Shown here in pieces: positions 1 to 40,554 of a stretch of DNA of 46,063 nt; position 1 is the first letter of the stretch, and each line of letters starts with the position of its first letter. Source of the stretch: a virus. The DNA lies in IMG/VR virus record IMGVR_UViG_3300021077_000115, positions 1 to 46,063 of that record. One strand, 5' to 3'. A program made the position numbers and the translations under genes. The notes beneath the pieces were generated by a model. The model searched no databases. It was not told the DNA's origin and saw nothing but the letters and a program-made list of their open reading frames with translations.

Positions 1-706
1 GCACGCGGCGGAACGACGCCAGAGAGAACCAGTTGGTCGCAGCGCACTGGCCAGGGTCGGGGTCGGGCGCCAGTGCCCGGGACAGCTCCTCGCCCGCAGA
101 GCTCGCCGCAAGCTCGGGAGGCTCGATGCGGCCCCCGGGCGCAGGCAGGAGCAGGAAGCACCTGCGGCAGGCGAGAGTCACGAACGCCGGCAGCTCCTCG
201 GGCGCCAGGCCCTGCAGGCCGGGCGCCGCCCTCACGAGCGTCTCGCGGACGAAGCGGGCGAAGTCTGCCTCGCACAGAGACTCGCCCGGGCCAGAGCAGT
301 AGTCCGAGAGCAGGGCGCCGACGGCACTCGCGGCCTCTGTTCGCCGGACGAGCCCGAGGAACAGCGAGGGCGTGGGGCCAGCCGGCGTGCGCGAGAGCAT
401 TGCGTACACACTCGGCTTGAAGTACCGCGCGGCCCGGGGCCCAGCCGCCTGCGCTGCCCGCCGGAATTCGTCGTACGAGAGGAACACGGGGAGCGGGACG
501 GGCGGCAGCAGAGGGACGCCGGCGCCGGCCACGGCAGGCGGCAGCGGCGGCAGCGGGTGCGCCTGGAGCAGGGCATCGCGGATCTTGATGATGTCGTCGG
601 GCGAGAGGGACTCTGCCCGGGCGCGGAGGAGGGCTCGCTGCCGCGCGGCCTGTAAGCCCGCGCCTTGCAGAGCCGCCGGCTGTCCCATCGCATCCACGAG
701 TTCCAT
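1..706 (-). CDS. Partial Pro/Ala-rich hypothetical protein. An open frame runs from the ATG at 706..704 to the window edge with no stop. It is not in the ORF track because it is incomplete.
   Basis: Manual reverse-complement translation gives MELVDAMGQPAALQG...PLPPLPPAVAGAGVPLLPPVPLPVFLSYDEFRRAAQ...FRRV with no stop over 235 codons. GC is ~70%. The listed ORFs 232..738(-), 372..854(+) and 73..420(+) are alternative frames of the same GC-rich DNA and look spurious, being Arg/Ser-rich. Confidence 0.35.
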   Translation of the reverse strand, partial: MELVDAMGQPAALQGAGLQAARQRALLRARAESLSPDDIIKIRDALLQAHPLPPLPPAVAGAGVPLLPPVPLPVFLSYDEFRRAAQAAGPRAARYFKPSVYAMLSRTPAGPTPSLFLGLVRRTEAASAVGALLSDYCSGPGESLCEADFARFVRETLVRAAPGLQGLAPEELPAFVTLACRRCFLLLPAPGGRIEPPELAASSAGEELSRALAPDPDPGQCAATNWFSLASFRRV

Positions 707-980
707 TGGGTCACTATTTTTGCATGATCCGACATCATCCATCCATCCGCGCGAGAATGTCGAGGAGAAGTTCGAATACTGGATTCCGAAAGGGATGGGG
801 GGCCGCAGGGCAGTCACTGAGTCTTCGCCTCAGAGCTCCTCCTTGGGCTGGTGAGGGATCTCAGCCTCCTCTTCGATAGGCACGGCCGCTGCAGCCTTGG
901 CGGCCTCCTCAGGGAACTCGAACGGAATCCTGAGCGGGCAGATCGCAGCAGAGGTAACGTTGAGACAAGGGCAGCGCGGC

Positions 981-25134: not shown

Positions 25135-25160
25135 ATATATAAATAAGCGGTCGGACTAAT

Positions 25161-25198
25161 GCCTGGCTCAATAAAGAGCCAGGTATTATCAATTATTT
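25161..25198 (+). terminator. Probable rho-independent terminator after the S53 peptidase gene.
   Basis: gcctggctc-aataaa-gagccaggt, followed by an A/T-rich tract. Confidence 0.45.
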
Positions 25199-25227
25199 AA
25201 ACATTGCCAATATTATGACATATATAT

Positions 25228-26382
25228 ATGACATATAAACGATTTGCTGATAACGCTGATAATATTGGCTTTATGACTGGTGATGATTTTACTAGGCTTA
25301 ATGGTATATCAGATGGTTATGTTACTAAGATTGATTCTCGCTTACCGACATCACCAATAATTACCAACAGCGGGTCTGCTGTTTCTGGTGACGTTGTTCG
25401 ACTTGCATCTACCGGGGTATTAGCTAAAGCTCAGGCTGATTCAGTATCCCATGCTGTTTCTGTTATAGGTGCGTGGGATGGTTATCAAGTATTACCATTC
25501 TCTTCTCAGCCAATAGTTACATTTGATTCAGCACCAATTGTAGGAAAACCCTGCTATTTGTCATCTACCATCGCAGGAGCATTGACTTCTGCTGCTCCAG
25601 CTAGTGGCGCTGTATCAGTGCCTCCTGATTTGATTATATTACAGGATTATACAGTTGGAGTATCTTATAAGGCTAGAGTTGGCAAAAGCGCCTCAATTGT
25701 TTCTCCACTAAGTATAGATCAACAATTCGTAGCTGATGCCGCATCTTTAATTGGAGTACTTCCAAATTCATTGCATCTAAAGTTTGATGACTTCAATACC
25801 TTGCCAACAACTGGGTATCCTGTCTTTGGTACAATAACCTACGCGATCACGCCTGGCACTCACCTGAACCAGACCGGAGCACCATCCACCCTAGATTTCT
25901 CTTCCACTGATGGAGCATACCCAGAGTGGGTTGTTCAACTAGCATCACCATCCACCCCTACAGACTTGAACTTGCTTTCGAATGTAGCGCTAACCTCCCA
26001 GCTTTGGGCTTTTAGAGCAAGGTTCAAGATAGCAAGACTGAACGAGACGTTCAAGTTCTACATCGATAGGGGCGCTGGGAATGAAACAATTGGAATAGTC
26101 ATAGTCACTGTGTCGGCCGTGAATAGCTTCTATGCTATGTTCGGTAACTTTAGTCCATTGGCTATTGATCCTAGCCCGAGCCAACGACAACTACTCATCG
26201 CGGAAGATACTGCTTGGCATGTGTTTACTATGTGGAGTATTGGTGATGGATCAATGAGAGTAAAGTTAGACAACGGTACTACTTATACCTTTGCTCTTCC
26301 TGCAATCAGCGCCATCGCCCCACGGTTCTCAATGGTCACAACGAATGCAATCTTCGACTATTGGATGATGGGGACTGTCTAA
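25228..26382 (+). CDS. Hypothetical protein (384 aa), a possible structural or fibre protein.
   Basis: ORF only. It is rich in Ser/Thr/Gly. Confidence 0.45.
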   Translation: MTYKRFADNADNIGFMTGDDFTRLNGISDGYVTKIDSRLPTSPIITNSGSAVSGDVVRLASTGVLAKAQADSVSHAVSVIGAWDGYQVLPFSSQPIVTFDSAPIVGKPCYLSSTIAGALTSAAPASGAVSVPPDLIILQDYTVGVSYKARVGKSASIVSPLSIDQQFVADAASLIGVLPNSLHLKFDDFNTLPTTGYPVFGTITYAITPGTHLNQTGAPSTLDFSSTDGAYPEWVVQLASPSTPTDLNLLSNVALTSQLWAFRARFKIARLNETFKFYIDRGAGNETIGIVIVTVSAVNSFYAMFGNFSPLAIDPSPSQRQLLIAEDTAWHVFTMWSIGDGSMRVKLDNGTTYTFALPAISAIAPRFSMVTTNAIFDYWMMGTV

Positions 26383-27443
26383 TGCATCTAATATCATCAC
26401 GTTGGAGTAATCGTTGGAATCAAAGTCCAGCTCAATGGGCTTCTATGAGGGCTGCCTTCATAAATGTTATTTATCCTCATGGCTTGCCAACTGGTGGAGT
26501 TGATGTAATTCAACAAAATTTTAACTACGCCGGAGTTGGAATAGCTCTACCAGCTAATTGTACTCACATGACACGGTACACAATTACCTCTCCAGGTATG
26601 CGTCCAGGAGGAGATCCTCAGTACACTTATTTATTGTACCCGACAAGCCCAAACAACAAGTTGATTGTGTGGTTGACAGGTCACGATGGCTGGGTTGACT
26701 ATGCTGGACCAGCTGAGGGTAATGTTATCCAAGCAATGCTAGGTGCTGGGTATTATGTGCTTGTATGCCAACAAATGTCATTTGATTACCCGACTGGTCC
26801 AGTGGGGACTCACATTGTAGTGGGCGGATCTTGGACTTACTCAGCAGGATCTTGGAGCAATACCGGTGGCACTCTAACTCACTTCACAGAGCACGAAGCA
26901 TGGCCACTTGCTAGTGATGGTGGTCCGGATGGCATACTACAGTTCATCCACCACATCATGCTTAGTGCGAACCAAGCTGTGACTGAGGTTAGCCCAATAA
27001 AGTGTATTCTGGCTGGACACTCGGGTGGTGGCGTTGACGGAAACATTGTTGCTGCTATTGATTCGCGATACGTCTCTTGGTATAGCAACTGTCCAGGATT
27101 GCCTCTTATTCAGACAGGATACCTAGGGTCTCCTATTGATTGGGAAAGTTACTTACCAACAATTACTTACTCAAGTCCACCCTACTCACAGGACTACTGG
27201 GGGACCCTCAGAATAGGCGCAAGTTGGCCTGGGAGACACTCAGACCTAGTGAGTTCTCTCAATGATGAGTACTGGTTTCCAGTGAACGTGCCTCTATGGT
27301 ATGAACTCAGTGAGTCAATTGTCGATTATATGCGCTCTGCTGGTTCAACCTTTACCTATTACCTAGACCCGACAAACTTCCCAGGTCACGTGATGAACGC
27401 AGTGCGAATCAATAGAATGCTAACCTTAATGGCAAATGACTAG
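26361..27443 (+). CDS. Hypothetical protein with an alpha/beta-hydrolase-like nucleophile elbow.
   Basis: ILAGHSGGGVDG is a GxSxG motif. Confidence 0.4.
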   Translation: MDDGDCLMHLISSRWSNRWNQSPAQWASMRAAFINVIYPHGLPTGGVDVIQQNFNYAGVGIALPANCTHMTRYTITSPGMRPGGDPQYTYLLYPTSPNNKLIVWLTGHDGWVDYAGPAEGNVIQAMLGAGYYVLVCQQMSFDYPTGPVGTHIVVGGSWTYSAGSWSNTGGTLTHFTEHEAWPLASDGGPDGILQFIHHIMLSANQAVTEVSPIKCILAGHSGGGVDGNIVAAIDSRYVSWYSNCPGLPLIQTGYLGSPIDWESYLPTITYSSPPYSQDYWGTLRIGASWPGRHSDLVSSLNDEYWFPVNVPLWYELSESIVDYMRSAGSTFTYYLDPTNFPGHVMNAVRINRMLTLMAND

Positions 27444-27491
27444 CTGAAGACTCGGAAGCTTCGGAGCTTACGCTAAGTCTGGTATATTGTT

Positions 27492-28523
27492 ATGGCTCGT
27501 AAATTTCTATACAAACTTCATGCTTTAATTTCTAACTATGCTTCTAACCAAGTAACGCATTTGCTTTATTCGGGGCTTGGGTGGACGGTAGTTGGAAACA
27601 TTGATACCGCAGGAACGTCTGGTAACTTATCATCTATTGCCTCAAATGTTCAAGGCTCACGTGTATTGTTTGCTAGTTACTATGGAAGTAGTGTAGTTCC
27701 ATTAAATTATTCTGGTGGCACTTGGATTGCAGGAAGCCCAGTTTCAGTTCCTAGTGGTGGTGGTAATGTATCGTCTGTTACAATATCAGATGATGGACTG
27801 CATGCATTAGCAACCGGAGATTTTGCAACTGGAGTTACTCCATTTGAATTCAATACAGGCACTGGCCTTTGGACGGCTGGGTCTATTGTTCTTGTCCCAA
27901 GTGGAGACTCATTAGGTTTTGATTCAATAAGAATGACACGTGATGGGTTAAGGGCATTAGTTGTTCCTAAATATGATGATACCGCATGGCCATTGGCACG
28001 TAATCCAATTACTAATATTTGGACTGTAGGAAGTGGTATTTCACTCAATTCATCTAACGAAAGATTTTTCGCAATCGGAATTTCACAGGATTCTAATGTA
28101 GCAATAATAGGTAGTAACTTGTCCGGAGTCCAATCAGATGGTCTTACTTGGAATGGGACTACATGGGATCGTACGTCAATACCAGTCACATTAATTAGTG
28201 CTTCTTGGCGACCAGATGGCTTATCAGCAATAGGGGGAAATGGTGAGGGAGAAGCGGGATCTATTCGTACTGTTAATTTTGATCCAATAACCAAAGCTTT
28301 TACTGCAGGACAAACTCTAACTGGCTTTTCTAATGTAGGTACAGTTACCGTAGCTAATGATGGAATTGGCGATCTTGCCTTAGCTTCTGACTTTTCTGGA
28401 AACGTATTAATCCCTCTCACTTATTCTAGGTCTACCGGGCTTTGGTCAGCCGGAGCTCCAATCACAAGCCCACTTTTCACTAACCCTTCCACGTCTATTG
28501 TATTCCCGGTTTGGGATGCTTGA
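27492..28523 (+). CDS. Hypothetical repeat-containing protein (343 aa).
   Basis: Recurrent G[LT]W[TS]AGS segments suggest a beta-propeller or fibre-like repeat. Confidence 0.45.
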   Translation: MARKFLYKLHALISNYASNQVTHLLYSGLGWTVVGNIDTAGTSGNLSSIASNVQGSRVLFASYYGSSVVPLNYSGGTWIAGSPVSVPSGGGNVSSVTISDDGLHALATGDFATGVTPFEFNTGTGLWTAGSIVLVPSGDSLGFDSIRMTRDGLRALVVPKYDDTAWPLARNPITNIWTVGSGISLNSSNERFFAIGISQDSNVAIIGSNLSGVQSDGLTWNGTTWDRTSIPVTLISASWRPDGLSAIGGNGEGEAGSIRTVNFDPITKAFTAGQTLTGFSNVGTVTVANDGIGDLALASDFSGNVLIPLTYSRSTGLWSAGAPITSPLFTNPSTSIVFPVWDA

Positions 28524-28554
28524 TAAATATCAGCTAATTCTTTGGTAATATAGT

Positions 28555-29079
28555 GTGGATATTATTCAGCTTCATAAGTTCGCAGACCTATTTAAAGCAG
28601 CGGTGAAAGAAGTAAAGATCGAAACTAACTTCGACAAAGGAGATCATGTATTCGGTTATCAACTACTTCTAGACTTCTACAATTGCAAGAAGGGCGTCTG
28701 CGATGACATGGAACTTTGTTATGATTTCTTGGACAAGGTAGTTGAGCATATAGGTATGAACAGAATGGCACCGCCACAAATTCTACGTGGTGATGCTAAG
28801 AAATATCCAGAGAAAGGCCCTGGGCTTTCTGGATGGATACCACTAATTGAAAGCTCTGCTGTAATCCATACGTTATCAAAGAAGGATTTTATTTCTATCG
28901 ATGTGTATAGCTGTAAGTATTTTGAAGTCCAGAAGACGTTGGACTTTGCACGTCAATATTTTAAACCTAAGGTTATTGAATATCAAACTATTGAACGCGG
29001 AATAGACTATTATAGGGTACACACTAAACACCATTCGATGACAGCTAGTGACGATATAATAGATATTGAAAAGAAGTAA
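28555..29079 (+). CDS. speH: Pyruvoyl-dependent S-adenosylmethionine decarboxylase proenzyme (SpeH/SpeD small bacterial class).
   Basis: PLIESSAVIHTLSKKDFISIDVYSCK matches the self-cleavage and active-site region (…ES|S…IHT…D[VI]F[TS]C) of class-1 AdoMetDC. Confidence 0.6.
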   Translation: MDIIQLHKFADLFKAAVKEVKIETNFDKGDHVFGYQLLLDFYNCKKGVCDDMELCYDFLDKVVEHIGMNRMAPPQILRGDAKKYPEKGPGLSGWIPLIESSAVIHTLSKKDFISIDVYSCKYFEVQKTLDFARQYFKPKVIEYQTIERGIDYYRVHTKHHSMTASDDIIDIEKK

Positions 29080-29112
29080 GTCGAGAATATTTATGCGATT
29101 CCATTGTAATCA

Positions 29113-29643
29113 ATGGAAATTAAGTTAACTAAAGGCTTGGTTGCTATTGTTCCAGATAATGTATTTGAACATTTGAATGCATGGAATTGGCACGCCGGAA
29201 AATATGGTAGGACTTTTTATGCCATTCGCAACAGCCCTCGTAAAAACAAGAAGAGAAAAACAATACTAATGCACCGCATTATATGGGAATTATTACACCC
29301 AGAATATATTGGAACTAAATACCAATTAGATCATGTTGATGGAGTTGGATTTAATAATCTTGAGAATAATCTTAGAGTTGCCTCCGTGATTGAGAATCAA
29401 AGAAACAAGATAAAACCTAACAACTGTTCAAGTAAATATAAAGGTATACACTGGAATAAAGAGAAGGGTAAGTGGCAGGCACAAATTAGAGCTGGAGAAT
29501 TGTGTCAGAATGGGAAACACAAGCAAATACACCTTGGTTATTTCTGTTCTGAAATAGAAGCGGCTGAAGCTTATAATCAGGCTGCTATAAAATATTTTGG
29601 AGAGTTTGCAAAATTGAATTTTACACTAAGAAATTACCAATAA
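29113..29643 (+). CDS. HNH homing endonuclease with a C-terminal AP2 DNA-binding domain.
   Basis: The HNH region is HRIIWELL…LDHVDGVGFNNLENNLRVASVIENQRN. The AP2-like region is YKGIHWNKEKGKWQAQIR…IHLGYFCSEIEAAEAYNQAAIKYFGEFAKLNF. Confidence 0.75.
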   Translation: MEIKLTKGLVAIVPDNVFEHLNAWNWHAGKYGRTFYAIRNSPRKNKKRKTILMHRIIWELLHPEYIGTKYQLDHVDGVGFNNLENNLRVASVIENQRNKIKPNNCSSKYKGIHWNKEKGKWQAQIRAGELCQNGKHKQIHLGYFCSEIEAAEAYNQAAIKYFGEFAKLNFTLRNYQ

Positions 29644-29664
29644 ACGCTGATATATAAATCGGGC

Positions 29665-30501
29665 ATGGATAAAGAATGTGCAGTTTATGACGGGTATTGC
29701 TTTTACAGAATTTCTGGGACCAGAAGAGCAAGGTTTATTATAGATTATGGTGAGGGATTTGAAACTGGCACGATAATCATTCCTATGTTTAAAATAGCAA
29801 ATGGCATCGTTAGATCTTCTAATTGGAATGGTGATACTTCAAAAGACTCAGAGATAGAAGACCAGTACAGGAGCAATAGTGATTATGAATGCTTGCTGTC
29901 AAATATAGAAGCATCAAAAGATCAATTCTTCAATCCAAAGTATAAATTTATACCAGCTCCAAATCATTGGGTAAATGATACAATGATAGAAATTGGTCCA
30001 GATGAGCCAAAACTAGAAATCCCTATAAGAACAACTATAGTTGTTGCTGGTGACGATGGGCACTTTGGAGTTGCAATTGTACCAGGAATGGTAATTGCAA
30101 GAATTAAAGAAGAAGTAATCAGTAATGATATAGATGAATGTTTCACATCTTACGATGGTTATTGTGTATATCATATTTCTAGTTATCACAAAGAAGGCGT
30201 TAGGTTCCTTGCAGATTGTGAAGATGCCAAAGGAAAATATGAACAACGATATATTGTTCCACTATTCCGCATAGCTAATGGCCAAGTAAGGACTCGTAAT
30301 TGGAATGGCGATACCTCTGGAGAAGAGCTAGGTAATGATTACGATTGCCTACATGCTAATATCAAAGCAACAGAAGATATTAACCCTATAAAAGGTAAAA
30401 CTATAGTAATAACAACAGACGACGGATTATATGGTGTTGGTGTCTTTAAATGTATTCCAACTGCCAGAATAAAAGAAGAAGTAATACCCTTGCATTGTTA
30501 A
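29665..30501 (+). CDS. Hypothetical protein built from two about 140-aa internal repeats.
   Basis: The two halves share DGYC[FV]Y[RH]IS…[IL]FRIANG.VR[ST].NWNGDTS…G[VA]…ARIKEEVI. Confidence 0.45.
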   Translation: MDKECAVYDGYCFYRISGTRRARFIIDYGEGFETGTIIIPMFKIANGIVRSSNWNGDTSKDSEIEDQYRSNSDYECLLSNIEASKDQFFNPKYKFIPAPNHWVNDTMIEIGPDEPKLEIPIRTTIVVAGDDGHFGVAIVPGMVIARIKEEVISNDIDECFTSYDGYCVYHISSYHKEGVRFLADCEDAKGKYEQRYIVPLFRIANGQVRTRNWNGDTSGEELGNDYDCLHANIKATEDINPIKGKTIVITTDDGLYGVGVFKCIPTARIKEEVIPLHC

Positions 30502-30502
30502 T

Positions 30503-31834
30503 ATGAAAGCATTATCCGCTGCGCTATTATTATTGGTAATGGCTTGTGGTTCTTCTGGAAACACAAATCAAACTATAGGAACTGTTTCAGTAGGCGGTTC
30601 AAATGTTACACAAAGCTCCAGCGGTAATACCGATGTAAGCTCTGGCAACACTGGCGGTGTCTCAACTGCTAGCTCTGGTGGCGATACAAGCTCAGCTGGC
30701 ACCATGGCCACAAGCACTGATGGACCTGGAGGCACGTCCAGCACTGGTGATACAAGCACAGATCCATCAATGAGTTTAGGCGGTTCGCAAGACTTTGCCT
30801 CAAGCGGTGGCGGCAGTTCAATGGATGTTGGTTCTGGTGGCGGTAGCTCAGTAGATGTATCAACTGGAGGTGCAGTGACAATAGATATACCAACCGGAGG
30901 CGGAAGCTCGATAGATGTAGCAACTGGCGGAGGAAGTTCTGTTGATGTTATTACGGGTGGCGCAAGCTCTATTGATATGCGAACTGGTGGTGGAACTAGT
31001 ATTGATCTGGCAACTGGCGGAGCACCTTCCATTGATCTCGGCTGCAACAGTGCGTCTCCTCTAAACCAAATAAACGTCTTCGTAACCATGGACGCAGCGC
31101 CCTCGGGCGCTGACACCGAAGGCAACATGTACGTTGGCGGTAATCTGACAGCCACGGGTAGTTACACCGTTGGCGCGAAAGACACGCTGGATTGCACCCG
31201 TTACTCATTGGTCGTGGGTGGGAACATCACGATCAAGGGCGGAAGCGTAAACGGCGGCAAGGCCGTTTATGGCGGAACCACCGCTAGTGTCAGCGGCGTC
31301 AGCTTTGCGTGTGACGGTTTGACGCGAGGCAAGGGCCCGGTTGACTTGGTAGCGTTGAAGGCAACGGTCGAAGAGTTGAGCATTCGATTGTCGAAACTCA
31401 CATCCAACGGCACGGTCACCTCAACCAGCGGCAAGCTGACGCTCACCGGCACGGACAAGAAGCTCAACATCTTCAACGTCACGGCGGCGCAGTTGAACGC
31501 CGTCACGGAAACCGTTGTGAATTTCCCAGCGGCCTCTGCTGTGGTCGTCAACGTGAGCGGCACAGACGTGGTCTGGGGCAACGGCTCCGTATGCCTCAAT
31601 GGGCAGTGTGGGGATAGCGATCAAGCGACTAACGTGCTCTGGAATTTCTACGAGGCTGCGACCCTCTACTCGACGGGTATGGCCATTCAAGGGTCTGTGT
31701 TGGCACCGTTCGCCACGCTCGATGGAGGCGGCGGACATATTGCGGGTCAGGTCATCGTGCGGTATCTAAAGGGCGGACTCGAATATCACCCCTACTACTT
31801 CGATGCGTGCCTCATGTGGACTTCGCTCGTGTGA
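30503..31834 (+). CDS. Secreted lipoprotein with a Gly/Ser-rich region of tandem 12-aa repeats and a C-terminal GC-rich domain (choice-of-anchor-A-like by eye).
   Basis: A lipobox LLLLVMAC|G. Eight imperfect repeats of GGGSS[MVI]D[VMIL]xTGG. A C-terminal NVFVTMD…GNMYVGGN…YSLVVGGNITIKGGSVNGG pattern. GC rises to about 60% from about 31040 onward. Confidence 0.55.
   Translation: MKALSAALLLLVMACGSSGNTNQTIGTVSVGGSNVTQSSSGNTDVSSGNTGGVSTASSGGDTSSAGTMATSTDGPGGTSSTGDTSTDPSMSLGGSQDFASSGGGSSMDVGSGGGSSVDVSTGGAVTIDIPTGGGSSIDVATGGGSSVDVITGGASSIDMRTGGGTSIDLATGGAPSIDLGCNSASPLNQINVFVTMDAAPSGADTEGNMYVGGNLTATGSYTVGAKDTLDCTRYSLVVGGNITIKGGSVNGGKAVYGGTTASVSGVSFACDGLTRGKGPVDLVALKATVEELSIRLSKLTSNGTVTSTSGKLTLTGTDKKLNIFNVTAAQLNAVTETVVNFPAASAVVVNVSGTDVVWGNGSVCLNGQCGDSDQATNVLWNFYEAATLYSTGMAIQGSVLAPFATLDGGGGHIAGQVIVRYLKGGLEYHPYYFDACLMWTSLV
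30803..31040 (+). repeat. Tandem 36-bp (12-codon) direct repeat array, about 6-7 units, inside the lipoprotein gene.
   Basis: Seen directly: …ggcggtagctcagtagatgtatcaactgga / ggcggaagctcgatagatgtagcaactggc / ggaggaagttctgttgatgttattacgggt…. Confidence 0.7.
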
Positions 31835-31974
31835 GCGGTATGTTGAGAAATATAATCACCAACAGCTTCATGAACAATACTAGTCAACGTCACGCCACGT
31901 TGCTTAGCGAGTTCTTTGAGAGCTTTTAAATCAGCAGTTGGAATATTGAATCTAACGTTAGTGTTCTCTGCCAT
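31795..31974 (-). CDS. Ribbon-helix-helix (CopG/Arc-like) small DNA-binding protein, 59 aa. It is absent from the ORF track because it is under 60 aa.
   Basis: Manual translation gives MAENTNVRFNIPTADLKALKELAKQRGVTLTSIVHEAVGDYISQH…, a beta-strand then two-helix RHH pattern. Its ATG lies 1 nt after the TAA of the upstream minus-strand gene. Its 3' end overlaps the convergent lipoprotein gene by about 40 nt. Confidence 0.4.
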   Translation of the reverse strand: MAENTNVRFNIPTADLKALKELAKQRGVTLTSIVHEAVGDYISQHTAHTSEVHMRHASK

Positions 31975-31975
31975 G

Positions 31976-32284
31976 TTACATTTCGTATATAGATTCTACT
32001 TTGCGTTTATCTATTAGGTATTTGCTAAGACCTCCATCAATCAATGCAATAGCTTCTTCTGGTGTCATTACACTTGATTGACTATGCAAGACATATTCAG
32101 ACCCAACTTTCAAATGGAAAGAATAGTTCTTGTATGGCGGAGAATCATATCCGCTATATCCAAACTTCCATTCGACAATGTGAGCTTCATAAGGACCAAG
32201 CTTGATTGCCCAATGAGTTTTACTATCTGGGTCTCCAATATCTGGCTGACCTTCAACTTCTACGCCCAACAGTATTAGTTTCAT
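31976..32284 (-). CDS. Hypothetical protein (102 aa).
   Basis: ORF only. It is followed immediately by the RHH ORF. Confidence 0.45.
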   Translation of the reverse strand: MKLILLGVEVEGQPDIGDPDSKTHWAIKLGPYEAHIVEWKFGYSGYDSPPYKNYSFHLKVGSEYVLHSQSSVMTPEEAIALIDGGLSKYLIDKRKVESIYEM

Positions 32285-32581
32285 ATTGATGTTCCTTAAA
32301 GCGAAGTAGGCAGAAGGTTATGATCCTACCTGCCCATCGACTCCCCGTCCGGAGCTACTTCTGTCGATGTTGCCTAGTTCGTGTCCTGCGTCCAGTCCAA
32401 GCGATCTCAGCGCTTCCTAGGCCGGTAAATACTTACCCTCGGATAAGAGATGTCCTTTAGGGGACTACCTAGGGATTAAGTTGCTTACCTGAAAGCGATA
32501 CTAGCTAAAGCCGTCTGAATTGTCAAAGAAAAATCTCAGCGCGTAGTCAAAAATCCTCTGGGCCTAACGCCGTATTCTTAT

Positions 32582-33115
32582 ATGGCAAGCCCAAATGACA
32601 TAATTGAAATAGTGAATAGCTACATTGGTGATAGTTTAGTTAACAAGAAAGATGATCTTGCTGAACTCATTGCTCGTGGTGTTGATGATCCTGCACAAAT
32701 TGTTATGGTGAAAACCAATTGCGCAGTTTTCGCACTGGGAGTTTGGTGTTTGGTTGGCGTTCAACATGATCTATTGAAGATAAAATATCAGAACGGAATG
32801 GCCATCGTCTGGGTCCGTAAGATAGCACAGGCCAAAGGTGCCCTACGCACATATAAGAAAGATGGTCTTCCTATTGCTGGATCCTTAATGCATTATTATA
32901 CTCCCAATCGAAATGACAATCATGTAGAATTCTTACTTGAAGATCCAAACGATAAACACTTTGCCTTACACGCCGGAGGTGGTCGAGATAAAAACGAGAT
33001 AGGTTCGGGCACAAGTGATATCACTTGGAGCTGGCAACCAAGCCGCAAACTCCAAGAATGGATAGATCCTGTGGCCCTTCTCGCAGACTCTCCTGATTTC
33101 AGCTGGAATAAATAA
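32582..33115 (+). CDS. Hypothetical protein, possibly a papain-like (CHAP/NlpC-P60-type) cysteine peptidase.
   Basis: A candidate Cys in KTNCAVFALGVW and a downstream His in DNHVEFLL. This is weak. Confidence 0.3.
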   Translation: MASPNDIIEIVNSYIGDSLVNKKDDLAELIARGVDDPAQIVMVKTNCAVFALGVWCLVGVQHDLLKIKYQNGMAIVWVRKIAQAKGALRTYKKDGLPIAGSLMHYYTPNRNDNHVEFLLEDPNDKHFALHAGGGRDKNEIGSGTSDITWSWQPSRKLQEWIDPVALLADSPDFSWNK

Positions 33116-33154
33116 ACACTCTTTGGTAACAACAATTTACTTAACTACAGATCT

Positions 33155-33895
33155 ATGTATGAACTTAAGGCTGCTAAATTCTATATCAGAAACCGTGATG
33201 GATTCCCTGAAACGGAAGTGCTGGACTATTCTCGCCGAGGATTTTGGTTACTTGGAGTAGAAACATCTACATTCGAATCTACAGAAGAGATTTCAGAGAT
33301 TGGTGATCTAAGTCCTACCGTTGGTCTGGCTGGTTACATAGAGGATGTTCATCGCGCTCTTGCAAAGCTTGGGCTTCCAACACCAAAGAGCATTGACTAT
33401 CCAGAAGAACTCACAGACTTTCTTGGACGTTCGCTACGGCAAATGAAGCTGGGAGAGATCCGTTCCATGGCGGATTCCTACTTCATCAAGCCAGTCCAGC
33501 ATAAAATCTTCAATGGAATGATTTGGAACAATGATAAACTATCTCGCCGTTTAATTGTAACCCAAGCCGATGACGTTGATGTTTGGGTATCCGGGCTTGT
33601 CAATTTCGTTTCAGAATACCGATCATTTATTTTGGATGGGCAGGTACTTGACTGCCGGCATTATAAAGGAGATTGGTCAAAGGCTCCTGACAAGTCAGTG
33701 GTAGAGGCTGGCGCGGCAGCTATGAAGGGACACAGCCCGATAGCATACTGCCTAGACTGGGGCGTCACCGATGATGGCAGAACTCTACTGGTAGAGTTCA
33801 ATGACGGATATTCCTTCGGTCACTATGGGCTCAATCCAGTCTTCTGCGCACATATGCTATCAGCGAGGTGGTATGAGATGTGTTTAGGATATTAG
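33155..33895 (+). CDS. ATP-grasp-fold ligase-like protein.
   Basis: KPVQHKIFNG, EYRSFILDGQVL and LDWGVTDDGRTLLVEFNDGYSFG resemble the ATP-grasp B/C subdomain motifs. Confidence 0.45.
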   Translation: MYELKAAKFYIRNRDGFPETEVLDYSRRGFWLLGVETSTFESTEEISEIGDLSPTVGLAGYIEDVHRALAKLGLPTPKSIDYPEELTDFLGRSLRQMKLGEIRSMADSYFIKPVQHKIFNGMIWNNDKLSRRLIVTQADDVDVWVSGLVNFVSEYRSFILDGQVLDCRHYKGDWSKAPDKSVVEAGAAAMKGHSPIAYCLDWGVTDDGRTLLVEFNDGYSFGHYGLNPVFCAHMLSARWYEMCLGY

Positions 33896-34456
33896 ATTCA
33901 CAATCCTGATATAACCTTACTCGCCACCAATGCTGATATTCAAATATACGCGTATGGAACATATTCTACAACTAACGCTTTTCAAATCAATGGTACTTGT
34001 AAAGCTGAATTGCACACTAATAACACATGCGCTAATCCAGTAGTAATCAATTTCAATAATGCCAATCCTACAACGGTTACTCTATCAGGTGAACTGATTC
34101 AGGATACGGCTACAACCGGTTCTAAGAGAAGCAATCAGTATGAAGCACCCTGCCGCCATCGACGAACACTTGGGTTCGTATCTTGGACTTGAGCACCAAG
34201 TCTTCAGTCTGAACGTGATACTCTATCCCATTCCTTGAAAGGCTTCTGTTCAGCCCCATCGCTGGTTGTCGAGCTTCAGGCATTAGTGGCTCCCCCTGGC
34301 GCAGTAGATTTATCTGACCTAATCAATCCAGATGAAATCTTCGTTGCCATATTAAGATGCTACAGGCGAACCATCTCAATGTTCAACTAAAAACTTCAAC
34401 CTGTTGAATTTAGGTAGGCCTTTTGGATAGTGTGAATTCAAAGAACCCACATAGAG

Positions 34457-35392
34457 TTATCCATATGGAAGTTCATGGGTGTGTGGATTATCATCGAACA
34501 TTATCCACCTGTTAGATACGCCACGACTATCAAGGAATGCCATCATGTCCCGCGCCCCATCGCCATTCGAAGAGTGGATATGGATCACTTCCGGAGCTTT
34601 GTGCAGATACCTCATCAGATAGCCGCAAGCATCTCTGCCGGTCAGATCACAATCTCCCATATAGCTACGGTGTTCGAAATCATTCAGGTCATGATCCAAA
34701 CTGATCATGTCAAAGTGATCGTATCTCTCCAATGCTTCGCGGTATTCATCGATATCGTATACGTGTATGATCTCGTCTAATGGATATCGAGCATCCATTA
34801 TATCGTGGCGAGCTGGATTGTCATCAAGGAACAAGATTCTTGTATGATAAGTTACTGGCTCTTGATCTATATGTGAGTTGATAGCGGCATCCTCTTCCTG
34901 TAATAGTTTCTTCCTTGGCTCATCTAAATGGTCTGTGTAACAAATTAGAGTGTTGTGTCTCGAACATACATGAATTTGTATCTTGCGAGTGGTTAGATAT
35001 CTGAATAGAGATGGAGTTCCACAAGCAGAACCATCAGTATTTTTACCAAGGTATAGTATTATTTTGGTTTGCATTAGAACGTTCAACAGACCATTGTTAT
35101 AGTTGGAGGGCCAGCTAACAAAGGCGATGTCGATTTCATCATGCATATCTTGGAAGAATTGATGTCGCAGCTCAATCTCCGGAGGTACACCATTGAAGAT
35201 TTTGCGATTGTACTCCTTATCAATCGCAATGATCTTGGCGGCACCCAGCCTCAGAAGTTCGAGAGCAAGCCCCAAATCCCCAGCGCCAAGGTCGTGGATT
35301 ATCTTACCAATAACAAGCGGGGCTAACACGCCAAGCTGAGTTTTGTTGAGCTGTCCGTATGACATAACATTCTCTTCTCTATCAACTTGCAC
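34457..35392 (-). CDS. Two-domain protein: an N-terminal Rossmann/SAM-methyltransferase-like domain and a C-terminal receiver (CheY-like) domain-like region.
   Basis: IHDLGAGDLGLALELL is a GxGxG segment. The C-terminal RILFLDDNP … FDMISLDHDL … VIHIHSSNGDG pattern resembles REC-domain signature segments. Confidence 0.35.
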   Translation of the reverse strand: MQVDREENVMSYGQLNKTQLGVLAPLVIGKIIHDLGAGDLGLALELLRLGAAKIIAIDKEYNRKIFNGVPPEIELRHQFFQDMHDEIDIAFVSWPSNYNNGLLNVLMQTKIILYLGKNTDGSACGTPSLFRYLTTRKIQIHVCSRHNTLICYTDHLDEPRKKLLQEEDAAINSHIDQEPVTYHTRILFLDDNPARHDIMDARYPLDEIIHVYDIDEYREALERYDHFDMISLDHDLNDFEHRSYMGDCDLTGRDACGYLMRYLHKAPEVIHIHSSNGDGARDMMAFLDSRGVSNRWIMFDDNPHTHELPYG

Positions 35393-36378
35393 AATGATGA
35401 ACGTTCAGAAATACCCCTTGTCTTACCATAAAGCGCTGAATTGTAACCGCTCCAAGTCTCTAAAGGCTTCCCTGGGACTGGTAATGTTTCTCTCTTGTTG
35501 GGAAGCCTACCATGCAAGTTATAAAAAGACTGTATATCGTACAAGATTATATCTTCGGTTAGTCTTGGTTTGCCCTTTGGATTCTGAACACCGCGTTCTT
35601 TTTGAAGTAATTTTGCTAATGTAGATCCTCCCGGCAAACCACGCTGACCACGGCTAAGGTAAATATCATAATGGGTCCAAGATTCGTATGATTTATCTGG
35701 AACTCCAAAGCTAGAATTAGTCTTAGGCCAAAACCCATGTTGCTGAAAAAATCTATCAGCATCCTCCAATATTGTTTCCTCGGTTATTTTATCTGAAAAG
35801 CGATTATCTTCTAATGACTCTGCCTCTAGAAGTTTCTTCCTAGCCATGGCTTGTCTTGGGTACCAATCGCCAAATAAATCCCTTGATATAATATCCTTTA
35901 TAACCGGAACAAATAACAGCCAAGCTTCGTATGGCATGTCTCTTCGTAGCGTATTGCATCTTTGACAAGCCGGCACAACATTCATTTTCAAATGCCCAAG
36001 ATCGTTATAAACACGGTCGAGTCCAAGCAAACGTATATCGCGTTCACCGCAATATGAGCATCCATTACTAATCTTCTCTTCAATGAATTCCTTTGTCAGA
36101 TCACAATTTCGTCCTCTTGCTTTGTCACCTGTTTTGTAGCTGCGTAATAAGTTTGCTGAGTGGCCTATTCCTTGGGCTCTATTAATAGCAGCCCTGTGTA
36201 ATCTTTTTTTATCTATTTCTGGCGATCTTTTTTCTTTGTTACGTTTGATGTAACATGGTTTACATACATCTTTGTATACCGGCTTCCCATTTTTCGCAAT
36301 GTATGAAACATAGAACAGATCTGTCTTTTGCGGACCACATACTTTACATACTTTTATTTCTAAATTTTCCATGACCAA
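35323..36378 (-). CDS. HNH endonuclease with an N-terminal zinc ribbon.
   Basis: CSYCGERDIRLLGLDRVYNDLGHLKMNVVPACQRCN carries the C-x2-C…H…N…H…C-x2-C HNH signature. The N-terminus is CKVCG…CKPCY. Confidence 0.6.
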   Translation of the reverse strand: MVMENLEIKVCKVCGPQKTDLFYVSYIAKNGKPVYKDVCKPCYIKRNKEKRSPEIDKKRLHRAAINRAQGIGHSANLLRSYKTGDKARGRNCDLTKEFIEEKISNGCSYCGERDIRLLGLDRVYNDLGHLKMNVVPACQRCNTLRRDMPYEAWLLFVPVIKDIISRDLFGDWYPRQAMARKKLLEAESLEDNRFSDKITEETILEDADRFFQQHGFWPKTNSSFGVPDKSYESWTHYDIYLSRGQRGLPGGSTLAKLLQKERGVQNPKGKPRLTEDIILYDIQSFYNLHGRLPNKRETLPVPGKPLETWSGYNSALYGKTRGISERSSLCKLIEKRMLCHTDSSTKLSLAC

Positions 36379-36514
36379 AAAGAATGGGCGAACGAGTCCA
36401 TCTCTTTGGCTCTAAGTATCTATCAATTAAAACGAAGTATTCATTTCCATTGGTTTCAAACCCATCGCCCATCACAAATACATATATCAATATGCATAGG
36501 TGTGTGGATAGCTT

Positions 36515-38491
36515 CTACTTCAATGCTGTTATTTCTGCGGTAAATCCACCAGATAATAGGGGAAATCTACACCAAGTATCGGCTTCTAGGCTGTGATTAT
36601 CGCAGTGCAAAGAAGGTGAAAATTTAATTCTTTTCCACTGGTTTCTTGACCACAGAGTGAAGAACTTTTTGACGTATGAAACTGCCAATGGATTTGTGAT
36701 ATCAGTCCGTTCACGACGCAGGCAATCAAGTACCTCTTGTGGTCCCTTCTTCTCCAGAATAGCCCATGTCTCGATGGCATCGAGGACTGTGTAAGGCATC
36801 AAGTCTTCTTCATCGGTTTGCCCCTGCCCTGGCCGCAGCTCAGCGGTTGGTTTCTGAACCACGATACCCTTCAGCGAAGAATAGGTCGTGACCATCGCAG
36901 TCAACCATTCGAGCAGGAAAGCCTTATCAATGCCGCCGATAGGCGCAATGGATCCGGCGGTATCACCATCCATCGTGCAGTAACCCACGGCCGCTTCAGA
37001 GCGATTGCTCGTTGTGATCAGGAGCTTGCCTTCGAGGTTGGCCACCATCCAAATGCCGGGAGCTCGTGCACGGGCCTGAATGTTCTGAAGCGCAAGGTCG
37101 TCCTTATCCCAAGTTAGCGGACGGCCTTCAACTTGCTCAGCCAACGCTGTGTAGCGCTTCACAATTGAATCGATGCTGATGCTCTTGAACTTGGCACCAA
37201 GCTGCTTAGCAACGTCTCTAGCTGCCTTGAGCGTTACCTTGGAGCTGTTCGATGTAGATTGATAAACGCACGTCAATAACTTACTCATGAGCTTCTTACA
37301 ATCAGATGGATCTTTATAGTTTGCGCCATGGCAAAGGTCGCCCAGGCCAATCCGATTGCAGGCCTCTTGTAGGCCAAGCTCTGAAGCTGCGCGCGTAAAC
37401 ATGATGTCAACCAGAACAGCGCATGCTGCTGAATCTGCTCCGCCGCTGAGCGATACCACGAAGCCTTTCGAATGAGACTTTTCCAAGTAGTCGAAGAGCC
37501 CAAGCGTAATCGCATTGGTGAACTCTTCATGCTTGGTGATTGAAGTGTCTTGAACTGGCTTCGTTACTTTCTCTTCGCTGTTTGCTAACTTACCACCACA
37601 CCTTATCATTCCATTAGCTTCAAGGTTTGGTGAGAAGCTTGCGGTACTGACAATTTTCGTAGTGGTCTTAGCCAGATCAATGACAGCGGTGGTTAGATTG
37701 ACCCTCTTCATATTCAAATAGGGGCCTCTAGCAAGCAGATCTCCACAGTTTGCGATGAGACAATCTCCGTCATAGATGGCTCGGCCTGCTTCATTACCAA
37801 GAAGATTGGCGTAGATGTACGTGACGTTGAATGCTCGCGAGCCCTCAACAACAAGACGTTCTCTGGTGACTCTCTTTCCAAAGGCAAAGTGAGATGCCGA
37901 AGGATTCAAGATGATATCAACCCCACGCTTTGCTAAAGCATTGCCTGGGCGCTCTGCAACAAAAGCATCCTCGCAGATCTCGAATCCAATATTGACTCCA
38001 TCAATATTGAAAATGAAATCGCCCATCGGCGCACCGCGCAGAGAAAGCCCCTTACTGAGCTGGCCGCGTATGGGAGTTGTTGTTCGTATGCCGCTTGGCC
38101 ATGGTTTGAACCATCGTGGTTCGTAATGAAGACCGTCACCTGCGAGATGTTGTTTGGGAACAATGCCAATAATCTCTTTGTCGTAAACGCAGACCATTAC
38201 ATTGTAGAGTGCATTATGTAGCAGGTACGGCACACCGAAACAGGTGAAGATGCCCTCGGTGCAAGGCAGTAAGTCTTGAAGCACATCCCAGGCACTATCC
38301 CTTACTGCCTCTGATAGGAAATGATCTTCGCAACCGTATCCGGTGATTGCCATCTCAGGCAAGCATAGGATTTTAACACCCTCTCTTTTGGCCTCGTAGA
38401 GGGCATCGATGACGTTCTTTTTGTTGCGCTCCCAATCGAGGGGAGTTTGGTTCAAAGATGCCGCGCCGACTTTGATGTTTGACATGAGCAT
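36515..38491 (-). CDS. nadE: Glutamine-dependent NAD+ synthetase (N-terminal CN-hydrolase/nitrilase domain plus C-terminal NAD synthetase).
   Basis: At 658 aa it has the long two-domain form. The N-terminal Glu/Lys/Cys hydrolase region is ILCLPEMAITGY…FEICEDAF. The PP-loop is VVSLSGGADSAACAVL (SGGxDS). Confidence 0.8.
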   Translation of the reverse strand: MLMSNIKVGAASLNQTPLDWERNKKNVIDALYEAKREGVKILCLPEMAITGYGCEDHFLSEAVRDSAWDVLQDLLPCTEGIFTCFGVPYLLHNALYNVMVCVYDKEIIGIVPKQHLAGDGLHYEPRWFKPWPSGIRTTTPIRGQLSKGLSLRGAPMGDFIFNIDGVNIGFEICEDAFVAERPGNALAKRGVDIILNPSASHFAFGKRVTRERLVVEGSRAFNVTYIYANLLGNEAGRAIYDGDCLIANCGDLLARGPYLNMKRVNLTTAVIDLAKTTTKIVSTASFSPNLEANGMIRCGGKLANSEEKVTKPVQDTSITKHEEFTNAITLGLFDYLEKSHSKGFVVSLSGGADSAACAVLVDIMFTRAASELGLQEACNRIGLGDLCHGANYKDPSDCKKLMSKLLTCVYQSTSNSSKVTLKAARDVAKQLGAKFKSISIDSIVKRYTALAEQVEGRPLTWDKDDLALQNIQARARAPGIWMVANLEGKLLITTSNRSEAAVGYCTMDGDTAGSIAPIGGIDKAFLLEWLTAMVTTYSSLKGIVVQKPTAELRPGQGQTDEEDLMPYTVLDAIETWAILEKKGPQEVLDCLRRERTDITNPLAVSYVKKFFTLWSRNQWKRIKFSPSLHCDNHSLEADTWCRFPLLSGGFTAEITALK

Positions 38492-38495
38492 TTCC

Positions 38496-40031: not shown

Positions 40032-40053
40032 TATGTTTTATCCAATAGTTGGA

Positions 40054-40509
40054 TCACGTATTAGGGGCAAGTTTTAGAGTGTCGAGATCCCAAATTCCAA
40101 GTTCCCTAATCACCATTTCGACTGGTGGCTGCGGCATCTTCTTCCTTTGAATCATACACCAAACCGATGGGCCCCATACCGGATCTTTCCTCCACATTCG
40201 GTATAAGGTTTCGATTTCTTTTTTGGGCAACTCTTCAGCGTCTGCACATGCCCACGCGAACACATCGCTACAATTCACATTCACGCTGATTGACTCTTTA
40301 AACTTCTCAGGAAGATCTTTCTTCCACCAATGATTATTCACAAATACAACGTCATTGAGCAGCAGATGAGCGAGCGCTTTGTCTTTCTCAAAAACTAACT
40401 CATCTGCAGGTCTTCCATGCTTCAACTGGTCTTCCTCAGACCAATCCATTTTCCACTCGATTGATTCTTCGGTGATTACCCACTCAATATTCTCAGCCAT
40501 CAGCGCCAC
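40054..40509 (-). CDS. Hypothetical protein (151 aa).
   Basis: ORF only. Confidence 0.4.
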   Translation of the reverse strand: MALMAENIEWVITEESIEWKMDWSEEDQLKHGRPADELVFEKDKALAHLLLNDVVFVNNHWWKKDLPEKFKESISVNVNCSDVFAWACADAEELPKKEIETLYRMWRKDPVWGPSVWCMIQRKKMPQPPVEMVIRELGIWDLDTLKLAPNT

Positions 40510-40554
40510 TCCTTAAAATGAGAGGGCCTCAGTTGAGGCCCTCTCAAATTACTA

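Follow-up and report, generated by a model that had tools for sequence, protein, structure and literature searches.

A mosaic gene for a predicted surface lipoprotein in a phage-like genome carries the 3′ part of a Myxococcota-type ortholog

The window, i.e., the whole 46,063-nt stretch of DNA analyzed here, carries at 30503..31834 on the plus strand a single unbroken ORF of 443 aa, and its status as a complete gene is supported by full-length homologs of the same architecture and by an identical protein (P0121), present both in an independent assembly and on a 391,957-bp contig. The JGI annotation retains only the high-GC half of this gene, a truncation attributable to the step in composition described below, which misleads gene callers. 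A promoter and terminator scan of its flanks yielded signals no stronger than those in shuffled sequences. A convergent gene for a ribbon-helix-helix-like protein of 59 aa lies at 31795..31974 on the minus strand (delineated as an ORF and by comparison with L035, L037 and L038), the product of which gives a weak RHH_3 match (0.02). Its final 13 codons overlap the lipoprotein gene and lie in bacterial-derived DNA, as a side effect of the 3′ replacement discussed below. We found no virion or replication hallmark genes in the window, and its designation as a phage accordingly rests on its gene content and its IMG/VR relatives, with relatives of its genes being found on contigs of 84–452 kb. The high-GC segment at its left end shows no Pfam, tRNA, Rfam or CRISPR-like repeat match and has 0 homologs in 5.8 billion proteins. 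Elsewhere in the window, the gene at 25228–26382, which has full-length homologs on huge-phage contigs, was considered as another possible mosaic and rejected; no bacterial donor for it was seen in a homolog search.

The 443-aa protein begins with a predicted signal peptide (MKALSAALLLLVMAC; 30503..30547, plus strand), recognized by pattern match, conservation and alignment against phage (P0010, P0012) and bacterial (P0001–4) orthologs. It displays the elements of the PROSITE PS51257-type pattern, namely an N-terminal basic residue, a hydrophobic stretch and a lipobox with a terminal Cys (SAALLLLVMAC, residues 5–15), and A14, C15, G16 and S17 are conserved in at least 90% of 30 homologs. From these sequence features, we infer that the product is a lipoprotein lipidated at Cys15; the mature part contains six more Cys residues conserved in the homolog alignment. 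The signal peptide is of the short phage type (MK/MR-xLSxxLL), as opposed to the bacterial type (MTRTCLNW). It is followed by a Gly/Ser/Thr-rich, low-complexity tether with low GC3 (30548..30805, plus strand), which is predicted to be disordered (pLDDT <50). Gly, Ser and Thr constitute 61% of residues 16–181; the lipobox match and this composition bear out the lipobox signal and Gly/Ser linker proposed in a first-pass annotation made from the sequence alone.

The tether leads into an array of eight 30-nt units (30806..31045, plus strand), defined by period, unit count and identities, each encoding 10 residues of the form TGGGSSxDxx, with TGGAPSIDLGC as the last. The first-pass annotation had located this array approximately correctly (30803..31040) but with a period of 36 bp. 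It had further proposed that the repeats render the gene length-variable, which does not hold: neighboring units share only 60–70% DNA identity, only diverged 30-nt units reveal the array, and Tandem Repeats Finder, run on 30000–32500 with scores down to 30, reported no repeats. The unit number is likewise conserved, being eight in 26 of 45 homologs and 7–9 in 40 of them, and a second sample yields an identical protein; we hence reject a slippage-prone locus. Bacterial copies show concerted evolution among their units. RTX-type calcium-binding β-roll repeats (nonapeptide GGxGxDxUx), suggested by the GGxxxxD pattern, were also rejected, as the period is 10 rather than 9 and the region, which is predicted to be disordered, is modeled with pLDDT <50; a Pfam search returned no match at E ≤0.1 other than PF20597, and so none to the hemolysin-type calcium-binding repeat model.

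The segment at 31031..31834 (plus strand), which HMMs, the structural model, DNA matches, trees and dS concur in delineating as bacterial-derived, comprises the end of the last repeat, the whole of a further domain (residues ~182–436) and a tail, DACLMWTSLV, with the stop codon after it. The first-pass annotation had compared its NVFV, GNMYVGGN and VVGGNITIKGG motifs to choice-of-anchor A (CAA) surface domains, and profile searches identify it by sequence as a full-length CAA domain: TIGR04215 matches residues 188–434 over model positions 1–254 of 255 (206.9 bits, cut-off 29; E 4.2e-61) and PF20597 (pAdhesive_15) scores 197.7 bits (cut-off 23.8; E 4.2e-58). The protein has no second Pfam domain, and PHROGs holds no family for it. 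A C-terminal anchor, the alternative forms of which lend the CAA family its name, is usual in this family, although the domain model does not demand one; no PEP-CTERM, LPXTG or T9SS anchor is present here, and the protein stops 7 residues past the last conserved Cys of the domain. PF07589 is present in distant homologs, and some homologs have a CBM_3 domain fused to the CAA domain (P0042). An AlphaFold2 model (residues 182–436 with pLDDT >93) indicates that the domain adopts an ice-binding-protein-like β-helix fold: the top 29 Foldseek matches in the PDB are ice-binding or antifreeze proteins throughout, all with an ice-binding-like β-helix. The best are of the DUF3494/IBP-1 fold (7bwy, 5uyt, 4nu2; probability 1.0, E 6e-5 to 1e-3), which shares the right-handed β-helix and flanking α-helix. 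Sequence identity to these is 10–16%, with TM scores of 0.40–0.51 (against single-domain ice-binding proteins, normalized by target length), and nothing suggests ice binding by the CAA domain.

The two parts of the gene differ sharply in composition, with GC3 of 0.30 over gene nucleotides 1–537 and 0.71 over the remainder, or 0.31 and 0.72 when the gene is divided at about codon 175–190. The maximum-likelihood change point falls after codon 190 (support interval codons 175–194, i.e., 31027–31084), with a log-likelihood ratio of 38.2. The ratio never exceeded 9.8 across 1000 permutations, and in 13 further long genes from the window it did not rise above 16.8; hence, the step is real and far exceeds chance, as the first-pass reading of a compositional chimera had anticipated. 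The 45 other genes of the window have a GC3 of 0.39 ± 0.10 (maximum 0.62), relative to which the 5′ half is typical and the 3′ half lies ~3.1 SD higher. Total GC is 0.57–0.61 over ~31100–31800, in line with the ~60% from about 31040 noted earlier. The 5′ half, in contrast, is not low-GC as had been claimed: its total GC of 0.49 exceeds the ~0.35 of adjacent genes because Gly, Ser, Thr and Ala codons lift its GC2 to 0.67, and only its third positions are low.

Such a step could arise in a metagenome if phage and bacterial reads were joined through a shared k-mer. The JGI contig matches the window at 100% identity and is hence not independent, and two other assemblies end at the left end of the window (~1346–1351), where a chimeric join is possible. 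However, an independent run processed with a different assembler (Logan SRR35912072, contig L046) reproduces 30037–41834, including both junctions of the gene, and differs from it at a single position out of 11,798 nt (99.99% identity). Moreover, a chimera would require two in-frame joins, one of which would have to fall precisely on the stop codon, where no sequence is shared. The mosaic is thus not an assembly artefact, and we practically discount this explanation.

Homologs with the lipobox, Gly/Ser linker, eight-repeat and CAA architecture number more than 40, and both types of relative that mark a host–phage recombinant are among them, namely bacterial chromosomal orthologs and syntenic phage orthologs. 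The bacterial copies, often two per genome, come from MAGs of Myxococcales, Polyangiaceae and “delta proteobacterium”, with flanking GC of 0.57–0.66 and GC3 of 0.54–0.75 in the 5′ half and 0.58–0.83 in the 3′ half. One of these (P0026), on an 820-kb contig, is flanked by ThrRS and PBP genes, and another (P0002, on L036) has the same HAD-PMT-CBM_3 neighbors as are seen in the P0026 context. The same-locus copies of related phages have low GC3 in both halves (0.37/0.46), and their gene order matches that of the window, with P0009 and P0012 downstream of AdoMet_dc and P0010 upstream of cREC_REC; the flanks of these syntenic orthologs are 73–87% identical to the window. The first-pass annotation had held that homologs with both halves high or both low in GC would speak against a chimera; precisely such homologs exist, and the window gene is still a mosaic. 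Among IMG/VR proteins, we recovered a single, distant homolog (36%; on a 458,729-bp contig). IMG/VR also gave no exact match to a 35-nt stretch of the bacterial-derived DNA, and blastn of 29000–33000 against 50,697 phage records gave no match.

Codon alignment places the 5′ crossover at 31012..31030 (plus strand), between the last phage-diagnostic site at 31011 (GCA, Ala170) and the first bacterial-diagnostic site at 31030 (TCC). Repeat units 1–7 are of the phage type, and the crossover falls inside the last unit. At codon 181/182, DNA identity to the bacterial orthologs rises from 60–73% to 76–94% and third-position identity from 25–51% to 47–89%, the same place at which the GC3 change point falls. 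Residues 101–181 are 78–88% identical to phage orthologs vs. 62–80% to bacterial ones, and residues 182–443 are 78–98% identical to bacterial P0001–4 vs. 38–75% to the phage type, with bacterial-type indels and C-terminal tail. Three bacterial loci (L036, L014, L015) match the window only from 30785 or 30890 to 31836, at 80–85%. Comparison of 3′ ends sets the other junction at 31835..31860 (unstranded): bacterial similarity ends at the stop codon, phage-type DNA common to the relative L035 is back within 25 nt, and no sequence is shared at the junction. In trees bootstrapped with our own distance code, the CAA domain of the window groups with P0001–4 in 200 of 200 replicates. For residues 1–181, the window protein groups with the phage proteins in 123 of 200 replicates and with the bacterial proteins in 0 of 200, the latter forming their own cluster in 198 of 200; the moderate support (61%) for this half reflects the low complexity of the region. 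Synonymous divergence follows the same division. In the CAA domain, window vs. bacterial dS is 0.39–0.57 (dN 0.07), comparable to 0.33–0.57 among the bacterial copies, and dS has reached saturation between window and phage; for the repeat array, it is window vs. bacterial dS that is saturated, as against 0.14–0.61 among the bacterial copies. The dN/dS of ~0.05–0.18 shows that the gene is under purifying selection. These data establish that the gene is a mosaic, what its two parent types are, in which direction the transfer ran and where the breakpoints lie.

They also bear on two simpler histories. A single capture of the whole bacterial gene, after which its low-complexity 5′ half ameliorated or diverged faster, would draw on the rapid evolution of low-complexity repeats and the concerted evolution of units in the bacterial copies. 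It is, nevertheless, extremely improbable: the step is sharp (~20 codons), both the signal peptide and the repeats belong to the phage type, 5′ third positions are saturated against a bacterial cluster whose own dS there is just 0.14–0.61, and mutation pressure hits the synonymous sites of both halves equally. A de novo fusion of an unrelated phage lipoprotein or repeat gene to a bacterial CAA domain, creating a new architecture, would account for a C-terminal half that is bacterial in composition and ancestry, an N-terminal half that is phage-like and a non-homologous 3′ join. We consider it very unlikely, as the lipobox–tether–eight-repeat–CAA architecture already exists in Myxococcota chromosomes and in the syntenic phage genes, of which P0009, P0010 and P0012 already have a phage-type CAA domain, and the 5′ crossover lies within homologous sequence. 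Thus, the domain capture proposed in the first-pass annotation is correct insofar as a high-GC bacterial C-terminal domain recently entered a low-GC phage-like genome; what occurred, however, was the replacement of a homologous 3′ part and not the gain of a new domain.

Accordingly, we favor, with a probability of roughly 85%, the reading that this gene is a recombinant of two members of one gene family. We posit that a very large phage lineage long ago took from Myxococcota a complete surface-lipoprotein gene, with the lipobox, Gly/Ser tether, eight 10-residue repeats and CAA β-helix, which then would have drifted to phage-like codon usage. Later, the 3′ ~0.8 kb of this resident copy would have been swapped for the equivalent stretch of an ortholog from a bacterial chromosome, with the 5′ crossover occurring in the last repeat, TGGAPSIDLGC (31012–31030), where the gene is best conserved. 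The 3′ join, which falls no more than 25 nt downstream of the stop codon and shows no homology, was either illegitimate or has lost its traces. The transfer appears recent, for no amelioration is visible (GC3 0.71 vs. 0.39 for the genome). No recipient-type parent above ~60% overall identity was found. The donor would most simply be the ortholog of the host, exchanged during infection; this identification is indirect, since the bacterial orthologs nearest to the donor segment are only 76–94% identical in DNA (dS ~0.4–0.5). The same gap (dS 0.39–0.57) could suggest that the mosaic is real but that its bacterial-type allele came from another phage or mobile element during co-infection, for which the common phage–phage exchange of psbA offers a precedent (PMC1484495). 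We regard such a donor as unlikely: all donor-cluster members with context are chromosomal, L036, the only other member with long flanks, lies in the conserved HAD-PMT-CBM_3 neighborhood, and the segment, at GC3 0.71, has not ameliorated toward the phage genome.

In the recombination reading, the product would be exported, lipidated at Cys15 and flexibly tethered in the envelope of the infected cell, where its β-helix may bind a surface or extracellular polymer, as presumed for the host paralogs. CAA domains of the Acanthamoeba Jonah lectins bind cellulose (PMC6541295), and the adhesive-trail proteins of diatoms (Trailins) contain CAA domains (10.1101/2023.03.06.531300); where assayed in eukaryotic recipients, the domain is a polysaccharide-binding or adhesive module (PMC6541295; 10.1101/2023.03.06.531300). 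As in these lectins and Trailins, a CAA domain has moved here from bacteria into another type of genome, but here a phage was the recipient, and it took over the bacterial architecture in full. It resembles other members of the CAA family (TIGR04215/PF20597) in its full-length, high-scoring domain, ice-binding-protein-like β-helix and predicted secretion to the surface; unlike typical members, its subfamily has an N-terminal lipobox anchor and a conserved array of eight 10-residue repeats before the domain. A surface-binding role is a tentative suggestion, to which we give somewhat less than even odds.

Intragenic host–phage recombination is known from the psbA and psbD genes of cyanophages (Zeidner et al. 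2005; Sullivan et al. 2006, PMC1484495), and the mechanism seen here is thus not new. The likeness extends to a phage copy of a host gene with patchy G+C, segments that differ in whether their nearest relative is host or phage, and an inferred host-to-phage exchange. The differences lie in the gene, which is one for a surface lipoprotein adhesin and not a metabolic gene, in the very large phage and Myxococcota donors, in a single clean event with GC3 of 0.31/0.72 and breakpoints resolved to ~20 nt, and in one non-homologous join exactly at the gene end. Phage lipoproteins that alter the infected cell surface include Llp of T5, Cor of phi80 and N15, and Ltp of TP-J34, which are small, lack host homologs and block the receptor or DNA entry. 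The window protein shares with these a phage-borne gene, a signal peptide with a lipobox and a probable location in the host envelope; unlike them, it runs to 443 aa and is copied from an adhesin family of the host.

Through the swap, the phage copy would have gained its binding module from a bacterial allele then in circulation. On a more speculative note, which we deem improbable, gene conversion might match the phage lipoprotein to the current host allele because the protein has to engage a partner or ligand that is specific to the host and borne on myxobacterial cells, for instance in surface contacts of a homotypic or kin-specific kind or as an outer-membrane lipoprotein passed between neighboring cells. 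If so, the mosaic would be an adaptive allele update and not a neutral accident, with the infected cell manipulating social surface interactions or excluding competitors. In any event, the gene presents an unusually clean, breakpoint-resolved case in which a bacterial allele has replaced part of the older, host-derived copy in a phage, an exchange hardly documented for surface adhesin lipoproteins or for phages of at least 392 kb. Viruses of Myxococcota are poorly known, and this mosaic furnishes sequence evidence that Myxococcota of fen and soil are infected by an uncultivated lineage of huge phages, or at least provide the cells in which it recombines.

We identified the lipoprotein gene at 30503-31834 (+) as a recombinant, with a probability of about 0.85, of a phage-type 5′ part and a bacterial-type 3′ part. 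It is a single ORF of 443 codons that starts one base past the stop codon of the upstream ORF. As the first-pass annotation had recognized, its product opens with a lipobox signal and a Gly/Ser linker: the N-terminus (MKALSAALLLLVMAC) matches the PROSITE-type lipobox with a predicted lipidation Cys at Cys15, and Gly, Ser and Thr make up 61% of the following segment. A repeat array then follows at 30806-31045 (+), with 8 units of 30 nt (10 residues, TGGGSSxDxx; terminal TGGAPSIDLGC) in place of the 36-bp period proposed there; DNA identity between neighbouring units of the window gene is just 60-70%, and Tandem Repeats Finder called no repeat in the array down to its lowest threshold. The C-terminal region belongs, as had been suggested, to the choice-of-anchor A (CAA) family by profile and fold: TIGR04215 matches at 4.2e-61 (model positions 1-254 of 255) and PF20597 ('putative ice-binding-like adhesive domain') at 4.2e-58, while an AlphaFold2 model built with 84 homologs shows a β-helix and one long α-helix across residues 182-436 (pLDDT > 93; residues 1-175 < 50), whose top PDB matches are all ice-binding or antifreeze proteins of the same fold (probability 1.0, E from 6e-5). 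Unlike usual CAA members, whose anchors are C-terminal, this protein has an N-terminal lipid anchor. In the JGI annotation (contig positions 9481-10747, window 30568-31834), the gene is split: only the high-GC 248 codons are called (P0005) and a 173-aa antisense ORF is put across the Gly/Ser-rich half, a gene-calling artefact of the composition step described below; the Logan call gives the full 443 aa.

Among 5.8 billion proteins searched, 137 relatives were found, dozens of which have a common four-part architecture: an A-C-G-S lipobox, a Gly/Ser/Asn-rich tether, the TGGGSSxDxx array and a CAA domain with a terminal GGLEYHPYYFxxC. The array had been thought to make the gene length-variable; of 45 homologs, 26 have 8 units and 40 have 7-9, and the array is therefore a fixed-length element, on which constraint seems to act through length. 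In three bacterial orthologs (L014, L015 and L036), adjacent central units are 90-100% identical in DNA, still with 8 units, reflecting concerted evolution or recent duplication. Across species-representative genomes, the family is confined to Myxococcota MAGs (labelled Myxococcales, Polyangiaceae or 'uncultured delta proteobacterium'), often with two paralogs each. One bacterial copy (P0026) lies on an 820-kb contig amid genes for threonyl-tRNA synthetase, a PMT-type glycosyltransferase, a CBM_3/Stig1 protein, an RND/MFS pump and a penicillin-binding protein; P0002, 82% identical to the window protein across 79% of its length, has the same HAD-PMT-CBM_3 neighbours, and these chromosomal-type neighbourhoods mark P0001-P0004 as bacterial chromosomal orthologs. 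The conserved order upstream of the bacterial genes (L002 and L036), namely HAD hydrolase, PMT-type (protein O-mannosyltransferase-like) glycosyltransferase, CBM_3/Stig1 protein, CAA lipoprotein and another lipoprotein, hints at a glycosylated, polysaccharide-binding surface system. A second set shares the genomic context of the window: an AdoMet decarboxylase gene immediately precedes P0009 and P0012, P0010 precedes a cREC_REC gene as in the window, and the flanks of this set are 73-87% identical to the window in nucleotides.

The first-pass annotation described a chimera of a low-GC 5′ half and a high-GC domain, an observation that was largely right, with its repeat period, length variability and 'low-GC' wording set aside. 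The entire ORF is a GC island (5′ part 0.49, 3′ part 0.58, neighbours ~0.35), so the 5′ half is not low in total GC, which comes from its Gly/Ser/Thr/Ala codons (GC2 = 0.67); only its third positions are GC-poor. GC3 steps from about 0.30-0.31 in the first 179 codons to 0.71 in the remainder rather than being uniform, and a two-segment likelihood scan places the change after codon 190 (support interval codons 175-194, nt 31027-31084) with an LLR of 38.2, against a maximum of 9.8 in 1000 permutations and at most 16.8 in 13 other long window genes. Set against the 45 other window genes (0.39 ± 0.10, maximum 0.62), the 5′ half is typical of the genome, and the 3′ half deviates upward by ~3.1 SD. 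A GC3 step, from 0.21 to 0.49 at codon 187 (LLR 16.8), also lies within the gene at 25228-26382 (+); no bacterial donor is apparent from its homologs, which are full length, 80-86% identical and found on contigs as large as 510 kb. Homologs of the CAA gene uniform in GC, named in the annotation as counter-evidence, do exist: bacterial copies are high in both halves (GC3 0.54-0.75 and 0.58-0.83; flanks 0.57-0.66 GC) and both halves are low in copies from low-GC, phage-like contexts (P0012, 0.37/0.46; a 458,729-bp IMG/VR contig, 0.25/0.33; L026, 0.31/0.25). Among the homologs compared, the window gene alone is split (0.31/0.71).

The parentage of the two parts follows the same division. The window gene has a phage-type signal peptide, and residues 101-181 are 78-88% identical to the phage-type orthologs (P0009, P0010, P0012) and 62-80% to P0001-4; from residue 182 on, identity is 78-98% to P0001-4 and 38-75% to phage orthologs, every bacterial-type indel is present, and the tail reads DACLMWTSLV, as in the bacterial type, and not AGCLKY, as in the phage type. 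Across codon 181/182, identity to the bacterial orthologs rises from 60-73% to 76-94% in DNA and from 25-51% (saturated) to 47-89% at third positions, and blastn matches bacterial loci only to window 30785/30890-31836, with unmatched flanks. In neighbour-joining trees (200 bootstrap replicates), the C domain groups with P0001-4 in 200/200 and with phage orthologs in 0/200 (P0001-4 alone, 18/200), while residues 1-181 do so in 0/200 and 123/200, respectively (P0001-4 alone, 198/200). In the CAA domain, the window differs from bacterial orthologs by dS 0.39-0.57 and dN 0.07, much as these differ among themselves (0.33-0.57 and 0.07-0.09), and from phage orthologs by saturated dS and dN 0.28-0.31; in the repeat array, window-bacterial dS is saturated (dN 0.24-0.26), versus 0.14-0.61 (dN 0.06-0.12) between bacteria. 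Accordingly, the 3′ ~0.8 kb is one more allele of one bacterial ortholog cluster and the 5′ part is not. The proposed domain capture from a high-GC bacterium thus holds for the origin of the 3′ half, and not for acquisition of a new domain, since phage orthologs and Myxococcota share the architecture.

A double in-frame assembly chimera is not credible as the source of this mosaic, as another assembler and another run reproduce it. The JGI contig is 100% identical to the window and hence gives no independent confirmation; the exact 443-aa protein is also recorded from Logan assemblies and a 391,957-bp contig, and a Logan contig from run SRR35912072 matches window 30037-41834 at all but one of 11,798 nt and spans both junctions. 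Elsewhere, window 1-1350 is 66-76% GC (34-54% in the rest) and its ORF 829..2 (-), with no homolog or Pfam match, looks like a real gene from an organism of very high GC (GC1/2/3 = 0.77/0.58/0.87). Two independent assemblies, each 100% identical to the window, end at 1346 and 1351; this boundary could be an integration junction, genome end, sample-specific region or chimeric join.

In the codon alignment, the last site diagnostic of the phage type is 31011 and the first diagnostic of the bacterial type is 31030; the 5′ crossover lies between them, in the last repeat, where the parental types resemble each other most. At the other end, bacterial-type sequence continues through the stop codon (31832-31834), homology to the phage relative L035 is back within 25 nt, and the 3′-end comparison found no shared sequence at the junction. 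A ribbon-helix-helix-like (RHH-like) gene at 31795-31974 (-), convergent with the CAA gene with a 40-nt overlap, has its final 13 codons in imported bacterial DNA; L035 retains only a truncated remnant of it. The neighbourhood is indel-rich: in L037, another phage relative, three genes that lie between the S8 peptidase and AdoMet decarboxylase are missing (window 25135-28526), as are the HNH-AP2 endonuclease and most of an internally duplicated ORF of 278 aa that precedes the CAA gene (window 29113-30460).

The window encodes an FtsH-like protease, HNH-AP2 and GIY-YIG endonucleases and a dense complement of host-like metabolic and signalling genes (9997-11390, 28555-29079, 36515-40031, 42520-45230), including DHFR and ThyA, AdoMet decarboxylase, NAD synthase and an NAMPT-like protein, and a Ser/Thr protein kinase with a PP2C phosphatase. 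It also has a type I-F-variant-like CRISPR-Cas set, all on the minus strand, of Cas6-like (1570-2097), unassigned 310-aa (2094-3026), Cas7fv-like (3031-4107) and Cas3 HD-helicase (4130-6508) genes; the whole window has no repeats of 24 nt or longer, CRISPR arrays included, and lacks any capsid or terminase gene. Its NAD synthase has relatives on IMG/VR contigs of 84, 155 and 452 kb, and we infer with good support that the window derives from a huge phage.

This phage lineage very probably carries an old, ameliorated version of the complete myxobacterial lipoprotein gene; dN of 0.11 with saturated dS between L035 and L037 indicates that the phage copy is under purifying selection. In the window's phage, a bacterial allele then very probably replaced the 3′ part of the resident copy through a single homologous crossover within the conserved final repeat and a single non-homologous join immediately beyond the stop codon, the altered end of the RHH-like gene being a side effect. 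The direction from bacterium to phage follows from the imported part being bacterial in composition and nested in bacterial diversity, with phage flanks and 5′ part. Most simply, the donor would be the host, which would then be among the fen/soil Myxococcota carrying P0001-4; the nearest sequences differ by dS ~0.4-0.5, which keeps this assignment provisional. The event is of the same type as the intragenic host-phage recombination of cyanophage psbA and psbD, likewise first spotted through patchy G+C (PMC1484495); the gene class and the virus group differ, and the case is a new, very clean instance of a known process rather than a novel type of event.

The conserved lipobox, together with six Cys conserved in the mature part, predicts export, lipid anchoring and disulfide bonding of the protein. 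CAA domains serve as surface adhesin modules. Those of the Acanthamoeba Jonah lectins, where tested, bind cellulose (PMC6541295), and CAA domains are also present in diatom adhesive trails (10.1101/2023.03.06.531300). Within the window's family, a bacterial CAA gene adjoins a CBM_3 protein gene, and in one homolog CBM_3 is fused to the CAA domain. The likeliest role, offered tentatively, is that of a surface-displayed binding protein produced in the infected cell; after the swap, the phage copy carries the predicted binding module of a contemporary bacterial allele.
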